Below, one piece after another: positions 19,568-48,577 of a stretch of DNA of 64,000 bases; position 1 is the first letter of the stretch, and the number at the start of each line of letters is the position of its first letter. A program made the translations under genes and the position numbers. The stretch is from a virus. Under the pieces are notes generated by a model, which was given only the letters and a program-made list of their open reading frames with translations, had not been told where the DNA came from and did no database searches. The stretch covers positions 1 to 64,000 of the IMG/VR virus record IMGVR_UViG_3300045988_113203; one strand, 5' to 3'.

Positions 19568-19796
19568 GGCTGATGTAGTTTCCAACATAGCGCTTGTTGT
19601 GGCGATAATATCATTGCTTTCAGCAGGCGCTTTCCTTCTGATAGTGATTAAGACAGACGAGGTATCTAAATTATTAATGAACGTACCTTATCTACTGGCT
19701 TCAGCGGGATTGTTCTTTTCAATAATATCATTATTATTCGAATGGAAAGCAAGGAAAAGAAGCTATACGTCTGCGAACGATGCGGACGAAAAGTGA
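19557..19796 (+). CDS. Hypothetical small membrane protein (79 aa, two predicted transmembrane helices)
   Basis: Hydrophobic stretches: IALVVAIISLLSAGAFLLIVI and LLASAGLFFSIISLLF. Confidence 0.45.
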   Translation: MKSKADVVSNIALVVAIISLLSAGAFLLIVIKTDEVSKLLMNVPYLLASAGLFFSIISLLFEWKARKRSYTSANDADEK

Positions 19797-20260
19797 TGAT
19801 AAGAAGTCATGGCTTATGCCAGGCTTGCAGGAGCAAAGAGTTGACTCCGAAGAAAAAAAACAGAATTACATCCATTAAAAACAGCAGCAAGAAGAAAAAG
19901 TTAGAGAACCCGGATTTATCCGGGTTTTTTCGTCTTATGTTGGAGGAGTTGGGTAGCATTCGAATGTCTATGACTGGTAAGGCTATTCATTTTCCTACAG
20001 TATGTAACGTCTGTCACATACTTCCGAAAAGGATATATAAGTCGGTTGCTACTTGCAGGGATAATATAGTTTTCCTACATGAATCGGAGCATACGGTATT
20101 CGACATGTATCTTGACAGGATGGAATTTGATAAACTTGAAACAGAATTTCCTTTTGTGTGGAAGTATGCGGTAAAGAAGGTACTGGATATGGAAAGCAGA
20201 GGAATGATTAAAGAAAGAGGTAGATTAATTATTGAAATAATTGACAGATACGAGAAATAA
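19742..20260 (+). CDS. Hypothetical protein with an N-terminal zinc ribbon and a possible HNH-like motif (CNVCHILPKR...N...LHESEH)
   Basis: CxxC...CxxC followed by an H-N-H-like spacing. The HNH assignment is tentative. Confidence 0.4.
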   Translation: MESKEKKLYVCERCGRKVMIRSHGLCQACRSKELTPKKKNRITSIKNSSKKKKLENPDLSGFFRLMLEELGSIRMSMTGKAIHFPTVCNVCHILPKRIYKSVATCRDNIVFLHESEHTVFDMYLDRMEFDKLETEFPFVWKYAVKKVLDMESRGMIKERGRLIIEIIDRYEK

Positions 20261-20318
20261 AATAGTTAAATACGATTAATAGTATATTGTATTTGAAATA
20301 ATATAGTATATTTGCGAC

Positions 20319-20924
20319 ATGAAAACAAATAAAGTATTAAAGATATTACAAATCACAAGACCCACTTTGACTAAATATGTCAAAGTGGGTAAAATCAGAG
20401 TAATCACAAAACCGAATGGTTTTTATGATTACAACGAAGATGATGTATATTCACTCGCTGGTTATTCAACAAGAAGGTTGACGGTTGCGTACTCAAGAGT
20501 TTCTACAAACAAGCAAAAGAAAGACCTTGAAAACCAAGAAAAATCAATCGTATCTTATTGTAATAACAATGGGATAAGAGTTGATAAATCATACAAAGAT
20601 ATTGCAAGTGGAATGAACTTCGATAGGAAGCAGTTCCTTGAAATGTTTAACGATATCATAGATAGAAAAATACAGACTGTTTATATAACATATAAGGATA
20701 GGTTGTCAAGAATTTCTTTTGATCTGTTTGAAAAACTTTTCAGGGAGTTTGGGTGTGAGATTATTGTAATAAACAATACGGAAGATAGAGAAACAAATGA
20801 ATCAGAGATATTTGGAGAAATTATTTCCATGCTTCATTGTTTTGCTATGAAAATGTACTCGAAAAGAAGAAAAAATAAACTTGAAATCGTAAGTAAGGAT
20901 TTAGAAAATGAGATTAGTCTATAA
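20319..20924 (+). CDS. tnpA: IS607-type TnpA serine recombinase. N-terminal MerR-like HTH (LKILQITRPTLTKYV) plus a resolvase catalytic domain with the active-site Ser in VAYSRVSTNKQ.
   Basis: Motifs read directly. The 201-aa size is typical of IS607 TnpA. Confidence 0.8.
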   Translation: MKTNKVLKILQITRPTLTKYVKVGKIRVITKPNGFYDYNEDDVYSLAGYSTRRLTVAYSRVSTNKQKKDLENQEKSIVSYCNNNGIRVDKSYKDIASGMNFDRKQFLEMFNDIIDRKIQTVYITYKDRLSRISFDLFEKLFREFGCEIIVINNTEDRETNESEIFGEIISMLHCFAMKMYSKRRKNKLEIVSKDLENEISL

Positions 20925-22140
20925 GTTCAACATAGGGAAGAATGAAGAGATATCGAAGCTGTGCAAGGTTAGCAACAACCTGTATAACCAAGCTTTGTAT
21001 GTCTTTCGGGAAACATTGAAAAATGAATCCAAATGGCTTTCCTATTTTGAACTTGATAAAATCTTGAAGGATACAAGAAACTTGGATGGAGAAATAAATT
21101 ACAGATTACTGAAGGCTCAATGTTCTCAACAGGTACTTAAACTACTTGATAAGAATATAAAAAGCTATTACGAATCTGTTCGGGATTATAAGAGGCATCC
21201 AAATAAGTATAAGGAAAAACCGGGTCTTCCTAAATATAGAAAAAGAGGTTCCGAGTTTAACATGTATTATACGAATCAAAATTGTAGAATAAGGAATGGT
21301 AAAATAATTCTATCAAAGGAACTTTCGATAGATATTCCTCAATATGAAAAGTATTCTTACTTGCTTGAAAATTTCAAACAAATCAGAATATTACCTAATC
21401 ACATAGGATACAGGATTGAAGTTATCTATGAGGTGGAAGATGTTGAAATCCCTAAAAGGAAGGAAGAGAAAATAGCTTCCATTGATTTAGGAATAGACAA
21501 TCTGGCGACTATTGTCAGTGAGGATTTTACTATCATTTTTAGTGGTAAATTTGTTAAATCACACAATCAATTATTTAATAAAACACTTGCTAAATTAAAT
21601 AGCATAAAGGATTTACAAAAGATAAAAGGAACAACAAAACGAATAAAGAAATTATATTATGATAGAGAACAGTACATAGAAGATGTCTTTCATAAAATCA
21701 GTAGAAAGATAGTTGATTTACTTATCGATTCCAAGATAACAAAATTAGTTGTAGGTTATAATAAGGGATGGAAAACTGGAGTAAACATGGGTAAAAGGAA
21801 TAACCAGAAGTTTACACAAATCCCTTTTGCGAGATTGGTTAGTTACTTAGAATATAAATGTGAATTAGCTGGTATTGAAATAGTTATTCATGAAGAGTCA
21901 TATACTTCAAAATGTGATTTTATTGCATTTGAGAAGATAGGAAAACATGAAAACTATTTAGGAAAGAGGAAGAAACGAGGATTATTTCAATCTTCAGTAG
22001 GAAAACTCATAAATGCAGACGTAAATGGAGCATTAAACATTATGAGAAAAGTAGTCGGTGATTCCTGTGAATCAATTCGTAGGATAATCGATAGAGGGTT
22101 ATTGTTTAACCCGGTAAGGATTACGAATGTATTTTGCTAA
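20908..22140 (+). CDS. tnpB: TnpB-family protein. RuvC-I is IASIDLGIDNLA, RuvC-II is HEESYTSK and RuvC-III is INADVNGALNI. The CxxC...CxxC zinc finger is missing and replaced by GKRKKRGLFQSS.
   Basis: The N-terminal MRLVYKFNIG is TnpB-like. All three RuvC acidic residues are present. No Cys pair lies between RuvC-II and RuvC-III. Confidence 0.8.
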   Translation: MRLVYKFNIGKNEEISKLCKVSNNLYNQALYVFRETLKNESKWLSYFELDKILKDTRNLDGEINYRLLKAQCSQQVLKLLDKNIKSYYESVRDYKRHPNKYKEKPGLPKYRKRGSEFNMYYTNQNCRIRNGKIILSKELSIDIPQYEKYSYLLENFKQIRILPNHIGYRIEVIYEVEDVEIPKRKEEKIASIDLGIDNLATIVSEDFTIIFSGKFVKSHNQLFNKTLAKLNSIKDLQKIKGTTKRIKKLYYDREQYIEDVFHKISRKIVDLLIDSKITKLVVGYNKGWKTGVNMGKRNNQKFTQIPFARLVSYLEYKCELAGIEIVIHEESYTSKCDFIAFEKIGKHENYLGKRKKRGLFQSSVGKLINADVNGALNIMRKVVGDSCESIRRIIDRGLLFNPVRITNVFC

Positions 22141-22205
22141 GAAGTACATTTTGAAACTTATAAAGAAATGTAATAAGTTTTATTTAATTTAATATTTTTC
22201 ATAAC

Positions 22206-22382
22206 ATGAGAAAACTTTATAAAATAAGAATAGAAGCTGACGATGAAACTATCTTTTATGCTCACATACAAAGAGAGAATTATGGCAAGGATATAGCTAT
22301 CGCAGTGAAAGATAGAGATAAAGATGAAGTGGAAACAGTGTTACATTGTATTAAAGAAGAATTGATTAGAGGAAGATCATGA
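22206..22382 (+). CDS. Hypothetical small protein (58 aa), below the ORF-track cutoff
   Basis: ATG...TGA overlapping the next start (ATGA). Fills an otherwise empty gap. Confidence 0.35.
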   Translation: MRKLYKIRIEADDETIFYAHIQRENYGKDIAIAVKDRDKDEVETVLHCIKEELIRGRS

Positions 22383-23698
22383 AAGAGAAAATAAAAATAT
22401 TGACAGATTTAGGGTTTGCGCCTATGGTAGAAGGAGAAGGAAATACGTTGTTTAGAATGAACGATGTTGTGATGTCGGTATCAGATCCTGATCAAACACC
22501 GGAGCAGTTAAAAAAGGAAGTTATGGCTTTGATAAAGAATAAAGACATAGCAGAAAGAGGCGGACAGGTTCCAGTAGTTAAAGAGCCGGCGCCTGAGCCA
22601 GAGCAGGCCCAGAAGGAGGAGGAACCGGAAGCTCTGGCGGAGGAAGCCGCTCCTAACCCTGGAGAAGAAGATTCGAATCCGTTTACAGAAAATCAGGAAA
22701 CGTTAGAGCCGTTTTATATCTGCGATGAGTTGAAGAAGATTGAGACTCCCAAATTCGTAAGATTGACATTAGACGATAATCGTTTTTATGTAAGGAAGAT
22801 GGATGATGGAACGGCCAAGATATATGCTTCGGTAACAACTTTAATCAAAGATGGGTATGTAGATGATAAGACCGCACTTCAGGAATGGAAGCAAGAGATG
22901 AAGATGCTTGGTCGCAATCCGGAAGAGGTGGCGCAGTATGAAGCTGATAAGGGAACGATCATGCACTACTTATACGGATTGTACCTAACAGGTAGAGATA
23001 TGGTCTTAAATCGAAGTTTTATAGTTAAGACAGTGCAAGAAGGCAAGCTGAAGATATCGAAAAAGAATCTTGACAAATTCTTTGGTAGCATAGATGATCT
23101 TGACGATATGATTGTCAGAGTTATGAAGTTTGCTAAGTTTTGTTCGGAGTATAAGGTTAAGCCGATGATGATTGAAAGAATATTGTCATTAGAAGACTAT
23201 TTGGTAGCTACGCCGATAGATGCGATGGTTAAAATGACATTCAAGTACAAAGAAGAAGGTTATTTTGGAGCCGTGTATCAAAGGGCTACAGGGCAGTTTA
23301 AAAAAGGTGATCCGAAGAAGGAGGTAAGAGAAGTGGAGAAGGAAGAAGTGGTTATTCTCGACTTTAAATCAGGGGGAATATGGGAATCATACGCATTTCA
23401 ATTAGAAGCTGAAAGAAGAATGGTTAAAGCATGGTATGGGATTGATGCACGTATTATGAACTTTTCTCCAAAAAGCACGAGCAGCAAAGGATATACGCTG
23501 AAAGAATGGACAGAAGACAGTATAGCACTTGAAAAGGCGGACTGCGTGTTCCAACAAGGTATGTTGAATCACCTTAGAAAAGATAAGAAGTTCAAAGTGA
23601 GAAAAGGAGTGCTGAATATCAATAAGCCGTACAATGAAGAGGATCATACGGTCGTGTATGATATTGCAGAGGAAATGTCTAAAAGATTCATAATATGA
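22379..23698 (+). CDS. Putative PD-(D/E)xK-family nuclease (439 aa) with an acidic low-complexity N-terminal linker
   Basis: Candidate motifs are PIDAMV (motif II), VVILDFKSG (motif III, DxK) and QLEAERRMVKAWY (Q..Y). The assignment is tentative. Confidence 0.45.
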   Translation: MKEKIKILTDLGFAPMVEGEGNTLFRMNDVVMSVSDPDQTPEQLKKEVMALIKNKDIAERGGQVPVVKEPAPEPEQAQKEEEPEALAEEAAPNPGEEDSNPFTENQETLEPFYICDELKKIETPKFVRLTLDDNRFYVRKMDDGTAKIYASVTTLIKDGYVDDKTALQEWKQEMKMLGRNPEEVAQYEADKGTIMHYLYGLYLTGRDMVLNRSFIVKTVQEGKLKISKKNLDKFFGSIDDLDDMIVRVMKFAKFCSEYKVKPMMIERILSLEDYLVATPIDAMVKMTFKYKEEGYFGAVYQRATGQFKKGDPKKEVREVEKEEVVILDFKSGGIWESYAFQLEAERRMVKAWYGIDARIMNFSPKSTSSKGYTLKEWTEDSIALEKADCVFQQGMLNHLRKDKKFKVRKGVLNINKPYNEEDHTVVYDIAEEMSKRFII

Positions 23699-47299: not shown

Positions 47300-47372
47300 A
47301 TTGTTTTATTTTTTTTAGTTAATACAAATGTTATTAAAATTACTCATTTTATTTATTAGATTCAACCTTGTA

Positions 47373-48560
47373 TCACAAAGTATTTACTCTAATTGGATTA
47401 AACACAAATCCACTATCGATTATCTTTCCAATAAAAGAATCACCGATTACTTTTCTTGCTATTCCAATTGCTCCATTAATATCTGCATTGATCAGCTCCC
47501 CAATAGAACTTTGAAACAATCCGCGTTTCTTCCTTCTACCTAAGTAGGATTCCTGTTTCTTTAGAGGTTCAAAAGCGAGATGATCGATCTTTGATGTATA
47601 GGATTCTTCATGAACAATCACGTTGATTCCTAAAAACTTCGCTTTGTAAACAATCTTATCTATTAACTTAGAATGAGGGATAGAAACGAAATGTTGGTTG
47701 TTTCGTTTGCCAATATTTATTTTGTTTTTCCATTCTTTGTTTAATCCGATGATGATTGTTCCTATGTCGTTTGATCTACAGAAGTTGACAATATATCTGC
47801 TTATCTTATGCAACTTGTCTTCTATCCAACAATTTCTAAACAAAGTAATTTTTCTTATTCTATTTGAAGTTCCCTTATTACCAACAAAAGACATCAACTT
47901 AGCTTTCTTCTTATTGTACCACTGATTTACTGATTTCAAAACTCGTCCGTTTATAATGAAAGAATTAACTACATTACTAATACATGAACATAAATTATTC
48001 AATCCTAAATCAATCGAAAGAAAATTGTCTTTATCTAAACCAAGATCAGTTTCCTTTCTTTCATAAATTACCTCTACTACATAACAGGTAGCTTGAGGTA
48101 TGATTCTAACTTGTTTTAATTCGTCTTTATTTATATTCGTTTTGATAGGTTTGATTATATCTTTGACAAAATGAATATGATTATCATCTTTTACCCTGCA
48201 ATCACAGTTGGTAAAAACAACCATGTTTTGTTTCTTACCTCGTTTGTATGAAGGTAGATGAGGACGATGATTACCATATTTTGAAGGATTCTTTTCAAAA
48301 TCTTTCTTTAATCTCATCCAGGATTTTATGTTTTTAAATACCTGTTTAATCACCTGCTGTGAAACATGATTAGGTAAATTCCTGAAATCAAATTGGTTTT
48401 CTTTGCAAAGTTTGTTTGATAAATCAAATTCCTTTAAGTAGTTACCAGAAAAGACTCCTTGACGAATGTTGTAAAGAACATAATTGTACAACAAACCGGA
48501 TTTGAGGCAAATATCCTCAAACCGGTTGTCTTTAACTATATGTCTTTCAACAAGTTTCAT
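47373..48560 (-). CDS. tnpB: TnpB-family protein (395 aa), a zinc-finger-less paralog of the gene at 20908-22140. RuvC-I is LSIDLGLNNL, RuvC-II is HEESYTSK and RuvC-III is INADINGAIGI.
   Basis: The C-terminal half is near-identical in pattern to the IS607 tnpB (GRRKKRGLFQSSIGELINAD, NPIRVN). No adjacent transposase. Only 17 bp and 73 bp separate it from the neighbouring genes. Confidence 0.8.
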   Translation of the reverse strand: MKLVERHIVKDNRFEDICLKSGLLYNYVLYNIRQGVFSGNYLKEFDLSNKLCKENQFDFRNLPNHVSQQVIKQVFKNIKSWMRLKKDFEKNPSKYGNHRPHLPSYKRGKKQNMVVFTNCDCRVKDDNHIHFVKDIIKPIKTNINKDELKQVRIIPQATCYVVEVIYERKETDLGLDKDNFLSIDLGLNNLCSCISNVVNSFIINGRVLKSVNQWYNKKKAKLMSFVGNKGTSNRIRKITLFRNCWIEDKLHKISRYIVNFCRSNDIGTIIIGLNKEWKNKINIGKRNNQHFVSIPHSKLIDKIVYKAKFLGINVIVHEESYTSKIDHLAFEPLKKQESYLGRRKKRGLFQSSIGELINADINGAIGIARKVIGDSFIGKIIDSGFVFNPIRVNTL

Positions 48561-48577
48561 TTAAACATTTTAATACA

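Follow-up and report, generated by a model that had tools for sequence, protein, structure and literature searches.

Insertion sequences of the IS607 family, such as IS607 of H. pylori, IS1535 and ISC1926, encode a serine-recombinase transposase, TnpA, with an N-terminal DNA-binding region, and an overlapping tnpB gene; they lack terminal inverted repeats, cross over at a dinucleotide and leave scarless empty sites. Recombination takes place between matching dinucleotides, and the flanking nucleotide belongs to the scaffold of the right-end element RNA (reRNA, or omega-RNA) (PMC10711439). A GG or G-rich target has been given as a rule for the family, for which restorative homing has also been reported (review PMC13565253). 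Here we describe a complete IS607-type insertion sequence at positions 20250–22207 of a 64,000-nucleotide stretch of viral DNA (positions 1 to 64,000 of IMG/VR record IMGVR_UViG_3300045988_113203; the whole stretch is called the window below), within the genome of an epsilon crAss-like phage. The element shares the overlapping pair of genes, the lack of terminal inverted repeats, the dinucleotide crossover and the scarless empty sites of the family, and we consider it very probably a recently mobile unit made of a serine transposase, a TnpB nuclease and a guide-RNA-like scaffold. It differs from the rest of the family in its AT core in an AT-rich context, (A)T-AT-(G), as opposed to the GG or G-rich rule, in its crAss-like phage host, and in the loss of tnpA from most members of its lineage.

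Among characterised nucleases, ISFba1 TnpB (PDB 8iaz) is, like the TnpB in the window, an IS607-associated protein of about 390–410 aa with an RNA-guided-nuclease fold. Its active site consists of D194, the canonical E290 and D371, and ISFba1 TnpB and 22 other characterised IS607 TnpBs use the target-adjacent motif (TAM) AGGAG or GAGGG and an reRNA derived from RAGATH-18 (PMC11061315). The lineage in the window departs from this type in a relocated glutamate, E330 in place of the canonical E290 (together with D193 and D371), in an AT-rich flank, roughly (A)T-AT, in place of the AGGAG or GAGGG motif, and in a covarying RNA structure that has no Rfam match and falls outside RAGATH-18. The alternative glutamate and the association with IS607 are shared with the TnpBs variously called Ealt (for alternative Glu), TnpB2 or RIIr (PMC10711439; PMC10530073) and with Fanzor2, a group that includes TvTnpB, ApmFanzor2 (PDB 9b0l) and the ISXfa1 lineage. 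These proteins, however, keep a C4 zinc finger that is absent from the TnpB in the window, where the RuvC-I motif moreover reads D-L-G and not D-P-G as in Fanzor and pro-Fanzor proteins. AsCas12f and other Cas12f nucleases (PDB 8j12, 8dzj, 7wju) give the best structural and profile matches, but they have the canonical Glu and a CCCC finger (CSEC...CRAC), act as a dimer with a CRISPR RNA and are not transposon-borne. The free-standing homing endonuclease genes of T4-like phages (Seg, Mob) are likewise selfish cassettes between conserved genes, present or absent in close relatives, and spread by cutting the empty allele in co-infection, as would be expected of the cassette in the window. Unlike Seg and Mob, that cassette would be RNA-guided and self-updating, with its guide read from the flank, and can also transpose.

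The lineage does not amount to a new kind and is best seen as a distinct variant among kinds already known. New are the empty site in the phage crAssE-Sib, the occupation of more than 20 phage sites, the AT target, often at an ATG, and the covarying RNA without Rfam match; a TnpB without a zinc finger is in itself not new and already appears in published surveys. Taken together, the relocated Glu, the missing zinc site, the AT target and the different RNA would widen the range of IS607-linked guided nucleases, and the lineage would also widen that of zinc-independent compact editors. Members of the family are plentiful in a phage group that ranks among the commonest of the human gut, and many of their sites occur both filled and empty, so that RNA-guided homing from phage to phage is open to direct test.

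The insertion and its empty sites

An earlier note on this DNA, made from the sequence alone, had recognised an IS607-like unit at 20285–22200, and profile searches bear out the assignment. TnpA scores 174 bits against the NCBIfam equivalog transpos_IS607 (cutoff 110; residues 5–187) and 86 bits against Pfam Resolvase, while TnpB scores 165 bits against NCBIfam guided_TnpB (RNA-guided endonuclease TnpB; cutoff 100) and has Pfam matches to OrfB_IS605 and Cas12f1-like_TNB. TnpA combines the N-terminal helix-turn-helix, the catalytic domain and the serine motif of an IS607-type recombinase. The best solved structure for its catalytic domain is ISC1926 TnpA (6dgc, E 5e-25), in which YARVSSSDQ lies under the nucleophile motif YSRVSTNKQ. 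Both open reading frames (ORFs), the recombinase with RVSTNKQ and the 410-aa TnpB homolog, are as first described; they overlap by 17 nt (20908–20924), with tnpB downstream on the same strand. The noncoding flanks of 58 nt (20261–20318) and 65 nt (22141–22205) also agree. The element is slightly larger than had been proposed, reaching from the crossover core at 20250–20251 to that at 22206–22207 (Table 1).

The empty site anticipated in a related phage was found in crAssE-Sib (OR575929.1; human gut; 151 kb), the sole close phage in GenBank, whose flanks are about 90% identical to those in the window and in which about 1.95 kb is absent. There NinG stands directly against the 58-aa gene and overlaps it, and the site reads GACAGAT-AT-GAGAAAACTTT. 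In the window the left junction reads GACAGAT-AC-GAGAAATAAAATAG..., with ...TTTTTCATAAC-AT-GAGAAAACTTT at the right junction. Followed by AT and G, the right end (RE, ...CATAAC) restores the ATG of the 58-aa gene, and the left end (LE) provides a new stop codon for NinG, whose final codons and stop codon now fall within the left junction. Both phage genes are intact because of this rebuilt start codon and supplied stop. The left crossover dinucleotide (20250–20251) is AC in the window and AT in the empty allele, a synonymous change from TAT to TAC.

Table 1. Features of the element and its surroundings in the window. Fractions give conservation among 107 relatives of TnpB.
Feature	Positions	Strand	Remarks
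Upstream phage gene, NinG-like	19742..20260	+	End ...DRYEK* in the window, ...DRYEKTL* in crAssE-Sib
Left flank end GATAC	20247..20251	+	GATAT in the empty site; last two bases are the left crossover dinucleotide
LE, 67 nt	20252..20318	+	10-nt direct repeats ATAGTATATT at 20279-20288 and 20303-20312
tnpA, IS607-family serine recombinase, 201 aa	20319..20924	+	Profile and structure matches
tnpB, 410 aa, TnpB/Cas12f fold	20908..22140	+	No zinc finger; rearranged RuvC-II; RuvC-III motif NADVN
RuvC-I Asp D193, motif SIDLG	21484..21486	+	Aligns with D191 of ISDra2 TnpB; 107/107
Canonical RuvC-II position, G283-Y284-N285	21754..21762	+	No Glu; G 107/107, N 102/107
Alternative RuvC-II Glu E330	21895..21897	+	106/107; directly after strand 324-328
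Degenerate zinc-ribbon (TNB) segment, residues 336-366	21913..22005	+	From alignments and the structure model
RuvC-III Asp D371, motif NADVN	22018..22020	+	107/107
Putative omega-RNA (reRNA), structured core	22054..22161	+	Helices 22054-22092, 22096-22112, 22114-22161
RE, AU-rich 3' part	22162..22205	+	Terminates ...TTTTTCATAAC at 22205; conserved to there in 80 loci, flanks diverge beyond
Right crossover dinucleotide AT	22206..22207	+	Doubles as the AT of the downstream gene's ATG
Downstream phage gene, 58 aa, intact	22206..22382	+	Overlaps the NinG end by 17 nt in crAssE-Sib
Flank that would encode the omega-RNA guide, GAGAAAACTTTATAAA	22208..22223	+	By analogy with ISXfa1

The window element was compared with 80 related viral loci (L002–L081). 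In these, the RE terminates in ...CATAAC-AT or close variants, and left flanks end in T-AT. Empty alleles were also obtained for three sites beyond that in the window, namely those of L020 and L003 and the commonest site of copies that carry tnpB alone (solo-TnpB copies), for which 97 empty contigs were found. At the L020 site and the commonest solo-TnpB site the element lies exactly between T-AT and the next base, with AT on both sides and no other duplication; the L003 site has the same right junction and, in addition, a 13-bp deletion adjoining the left end. A scarless empty site without target-site duplication is therefore seen in three independent comparisons of empty and filled alleles (window, L020 and the commonest site), with a caveat for the LE tip in the window that is taken up below. 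Such an AT on both sides without duplication is consistent with the published dinucleotide recombination of IS607 (PMC10711439), the core dinucleotide being AT and neither terminus nor target GG. An 8-bp target duplication, A[T/C]GAGAAA, was considered and rejected as not general, as independent sites have only AT in common.

The target is often a start codon. In 13 of the 31 distinct right flanks the AT and the next G form the start codon of a co-oriented ORF (58–752 aa; ORFs of at least 40 aa were counted), and in most of the remaining flanks the next start codon lies 1–35 nt downstream of the insertion, so that the element family sits at gene starts. At the commonest site all filled alleles read T-AT-GGG (as in L005 and L010), compared with A-AT-GGG in 71 of the 97 empty alleles (L188–L267). 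This hints that a T at position −1 (T-A-T) may be required by the recombinase, by TAM recognition in TnpB targeting, or by both.

Loci L009, L038–L041, L045 and L066 have a common left junction, but their right junctions are shifted by 12 to over 44 bp, in each case to another AT; the displaced junctions look like recombinase-mediated deletions adjoining the RE. A search for inverted or common subterminal repeats in the LE and RE detected only weak A/T-rich 7–8-mers, plus the 10-nt direct repeat inside the LE. The two copies of ATAGTATATT are 24 nt apart, directly 5' of tnpA, and are candidate TnpA-binding subterminal repeats or promoter elements.

A putative guide RNA and the spread of the family

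The right end, where an omega-RNA had been suspected, holds a covarying structure (22054–22161) that reaches back over the stop codon of tnpB and the 29 codons before it. Its consensus fold comprises 33 pairs in four helices, 8 of the pairs with compensatory changes; 98% of cells are paired, compared with 28–48% when the partners are slid, and the observed covariation score was unmatched by any shuffle. Synonymous divergence drops from about 0.27 to 0.12–0.19 over the last ~35 codons of tnpB, and nucleotide conservation in the last ~110 nt of the gene and the 65-nt spacer is far above what the 72–96% protein identity would lead one to expect. An Rfam scan of 19800–22800 (E ≤ 10) returned chance-level matches only, with no RAGATH-18, group I intron or other omega-RNA family; as there is no group I intron match, the element is not an IStron. 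The covarying 3' structure and the sharp boundary of the RE, which is conserved across the 80 loci in front of more than 20 different right flanks, fit a putative omega-RNA whose guide is read from the flank. This guide would be encoded by the right flank at 22208–22223, with the fixed flanking nucleotide serving as scaffold.

The cycle that we envisage would begin with excision of the element as a circle by TnpA, to judge from its family membership and the anatomy of the junctions; the predicted circle junction is CATAAC-AT-GAGAAA and the predicted restored donor GACAGATATGAGAAAAC. Re-insertion would proceed by crossover between the AT in the RE–LE junction and a matching AT in the target, without target duplication, and in the window the target would be the start-codon AT of the 58-aa gene overlapping NinG's end. 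An omega-RNA formed from the 3' end of tnpB and the RE, running into the flank, would load onto TnpB, and the complex, if it behaves as characterised TnpBs do, would recognise the element-free site by a TAM like (A)TAT followed by GAGAAAACTTT. The left flank end at 20247–20251 is a candidate TAM region, with a consensus of roughly (A)T-AT. TnpB would cut the empty allele, and recombinational repair from an element-bearing genome would restore or spread the element (restorative homing); in a phage, such restoration would amount to homing between co-infecting genomes.

Relatives were sought among 5.8 billion proteins, which yielded thousands of matches; the best 120 (60–96% identity) are mostly on contigs of 90–160 kb. 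Relatives have inserted at more than 20 sites across epsilon crAss-like phages, and annotated relatives at 33–43% identity come from Bacteroides, Staphylococcus, Bacillus G, Helicobacter, Nodularia, Lak and Altiarchaeum viruses. A full-length, uninterrupted tnpB ORF is present in 68 of the 80 related viral loci. In L067, L068, L070, L071, L075, L077 and L078, tnpB matches in two pieces with differing frames or identities, which probably reflects frameshifted or recombinant copies.

A full tnpA, in contrast, is kept only in the window and in L003, L020, L054 and L055, that is, in 5 of the 81 TnpB copies (80 loci and the window); the other loci have truncated tnpA remnants or none, with a different left end of ~100 nt. 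Many relatives must then depend on TnpA supplied in trans or spread by recombination only. TnpA is 98.5% identical across the window, L003 and L020, at three different sites, while the accompanying TnpBs are only 84–92% identical, a mismatch indicating that the two genes have separate histories and that the elements are recombination mosaics. In solo-TnpB copies (L004–L048 and others) the ~100 nt in front of tnpB hold a conserved left end of their own, AT-GATGCAAAATAACATTAAAAATAAT..., unrelated to the left end of tnpA-bearing copies. In L006 and L046 the first 27 nt of this solo left end are lost between two AAAATAATA repeats, and loci of the L036, L042 and L049 type retain only the last codons of tnpA.

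These patterns bear on an alternative in which transposition by TnpA has ended and the unit spreads mainly as a TnpB-driven homing or gene-drive cassette among co-infecting crAss-like phages. It differs from a recently mobile IS607-type unit only in the activity that dominates, namely the cutting of empty alleles followed by gene conversion. Most copies have no tnpA yet are intact, at sites common to many diverged phages, and the same sites are both filled and empty in the phage population; the mosaics of TnpA and TnpB just described point the same way, as do the LE tips, which partly copy the right flank and could be repair scars, and a TnpB gene drive has been reported for plasmids (review PMC13565253). 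Set against this, the window encodes a full-length TnpA whose catalytic motif is intact, and its 98.5% identity at three different sites argues for recent transposition; the deletions next to the RE that end at an AT look like recombinase products. We regard this alternative as possible, although somewhat unlikely.

Several points also weigh against the recently mobile unit that we favour. Full tnpA genes are few, the left core dinucleotide in the window is AC and not AT, and the identity of the first 6 nt of the LE with the right flank is not predicted by a pure 2-bp crossover. The RNA matches no Rfam family, including the RAGATH-18 that guides characterised IS607 TnpBs, the TAM is drawn from the flank consensus only, and the spatial proximity of D193, E330 and D371 is deduced and not taken from model coordinates. 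In the literature we found no expression, RNA or cleavage data on the lineage.

The 6 nt in question (GAGAAA, 20252–20257) recur as the first 6 nt of the right flank (22208–22213); the tips of other copies read GATTAA or TATAAA. It is possible that the identity reflects a choice of target by similarity to the LE, or a scar of repair or gene conversion from homing.

A second solo TnpB element lies in the window at about 47300–48577 on the − strand (ORF 47373–48560, 395 aa) and is absent from the corresponding locus of crAssE-Sib. Its TnpB is 42% identical to the first, has no zinc finger and has the alternative Glu; the right end of the element, ...TTTTAATAAC-AT-, is similar to the one in the first family. 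L006 is a 92% copy of this element with the same right end and a different upstream sequence. A 10-nt direct repeat, ATTTGTATTA, lies at both edges of the second element; it preserves the last codons and the stop codon of the upstream gene and is likewise not predicted by a 2-bp crossover; here, too, target choice by left-end similarity or a homing repair scar is possible.

We further speculate, with more doubt still than attaches to the homing alternative, that the lineage is an OMEGA/IS607 lineage specialised for phages. Its recombinase would target the AT of start codons, and the RE would rebuild the ATG with an A/T-rich leader, which would keep the insertion silent between packed or overlapping genes. 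The zinc-finger-less Ealt TnpB and its non-RAGATH omega-RNA would act as a self-retargeting homing endonuclease that drives the cassette through co-infecting crAss-like phages, and the copies of 6–10 nt of flank at the left tips of both elements would be homing scars.

The active site of TnpB

An AlphaFold2 model of TnpB, built on an alignment of 107 sequences, has a mean predicted local distance difference test score (pLDDT) of 94.6 and a predicted template-modelling score (pTM) of 0.90, with a single weak stretch at residues 290–300. Foldseek matched it with probability 1.00 to AsCas12f, ISFba1 TnpB (E 2e-15, template-modelling score 0.63–0.67), ISDra2 TnpB and Fanzor2, and the protein has the TnpB/Cas12f fold with a split RuvC domain. 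A phmmer search with residues 270–410 against PDB sequences gave no match.

The RuvC D-E-D triad that had been read from the sequence is conserved, but its Glu is not the canonical one: where that residue should stand, some 50 residues ahead of the finger, the sequence is G283-Y-N285 (Table 1). Similarly, the segment HEESYTSK, taken earlier for RuvC-II, does contain the conserved Glu, E330, although at the alternative position. In the alignment to the finger-bearing relative P0257, six residues separate E330 from the Cys1 position, 337, and the canonical site is inert, which is the arrangement of the Ealt, TnpB2 or RIIr type. The protein is not a Fanzor or pro-Fanzor, which would combine the alternative Glu with D-P-G in RuvC-I; it has D193-L-G195 instead, and its NADXN motif puts it in the "derived TnpB" group. 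RIIIr-4, a major clade without zinc finger in which the RuvC-III Asp is replaced by His (Altae-Tran 2023), was also considered and ruled out because D371 is intact and invariant in NADVN. We infer from the alignments that the RuvC site is formed by D193, the relocated E330 and D371, with the geometry of a catalytic triad.

It could be argued that this TnpB is nuclease-dead and domesticated, for example as an RNA-guided repressor like TldR or Cas12m with a role in phage regulation, and that the lost Glu and finger represent decay. The canonical RuvC-II Glu and the zinc finger are indeed absent, tnpA is missing from most relatives, and many inactivated, exapted TnpBs are described in Altae-Tran 2023. 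However, both Asp residues are conserved and so, at 99%, is the alternative Glu, and this arrangement is active in ApmFanzor and TvTnpB: the E467A change abolishes cleavage by ApmFanzor, where the alternative Glu is essential, and TvTnpB is an active TAM-specific nuclease, neither protein showing collateral cleavage (PMC10530073). The occupation of more than 20 sites with a conserved RE and a different flank, and hence guide, at each, and the common occurrence of empty alleles, are the behaviour of a mobile element and not of a fixed regulator. A dead or domesticated TnpB consequently appears quite improbable to us.

The zinc-finger segment

As the earlier note stated, TnpB has no zinc finger: no CxxC, CxxH or HxxC motif occurs anywhere in its 410 aa, and no C4 finger stands between RuvC-II and RuvC-III. 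Among the 107 relatives one, P0257, keeps the finger and sets the register of the alignment, in which D337 and A340 occupy the former places of Cys1 and Cys2, and Q361–V364 that of the Cys3/Cys4 region. A shifted finger was ruled out too, since there is no CxxC or CxxH anywhere and no conserved Cys or His in the region. In the profile alignment the AsCas12f finger (CSEC...CRAC) falls position by position on the degenerate segment, which is modelled with a pLDDT of 95–98, so that the fold is confident without the finger.

The basic segment GKRKKRGLF, which had been thought to replace the finger, is instead a conserved inter-cysteine loop, G352-x-R354-x-x-R357-G358-L-F, in which R354 is shared by all relatives, R357 by 106 of the 107 and G358 likewise by 106; the loop also occurs in P0257, which kept its finger, and in AsCas12f. 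The degenerate segment, EESYTSKC-D/S-x-L-A/D ... G-x-R-x-x-R-G-L-F ... NADVNG, is found in all 120 close homologs and recurs in 129 of the 130 cluster representatives and 79 of the 80 genomic relatives described below.

The view implied by the first description, that finger loss is a recent, phage-specific innovation marking an unusual variant of standard TnpB or a new kind of TnpB, can point to the lack of CxxC in this protein and its 120 closest homologs, but it is refuted and keeps practically no credibility, as the finger is also absent from 129 of 130 full-length cluster representatives at 36–57% identity and from 79 of 80 genomic relatives (Asgard archaea, methanogens, cyanobacteria, Chloroflexota, Bacillota and Bacteroidota), and the literature already records such loss for large branches of TnpB (Altae-Tran et al. 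2023, PMC10691335). The 130 representatives came from the best 150 matches of an exhaustive search that gave 5340 clusters at E ≤ 1e-3 and 1222 clusters (50% identity) at E ≤ 1e-30. As judged from these sequence surveys, a large, old TnpB clade of bacteria, archaea and many phages has the lack of a finger as its ground state.

Residues 337 and 340 (21916–21927), at the former Cys1 and Cys2 positions, contain exactly one Asp in 104 of the 107 relatives (S337 with D340 in 60, D337 with A340 in 36, other one-Asp pairs in 8). These positions adjoin R354 and R357, which suggests that an Asp–Arg salt bridge may stand in place of the zinc. The mutually exclusive single Asp and the near-invariant Arg pair offer a hint of how a zinc site could be replaced while the fold is retained.

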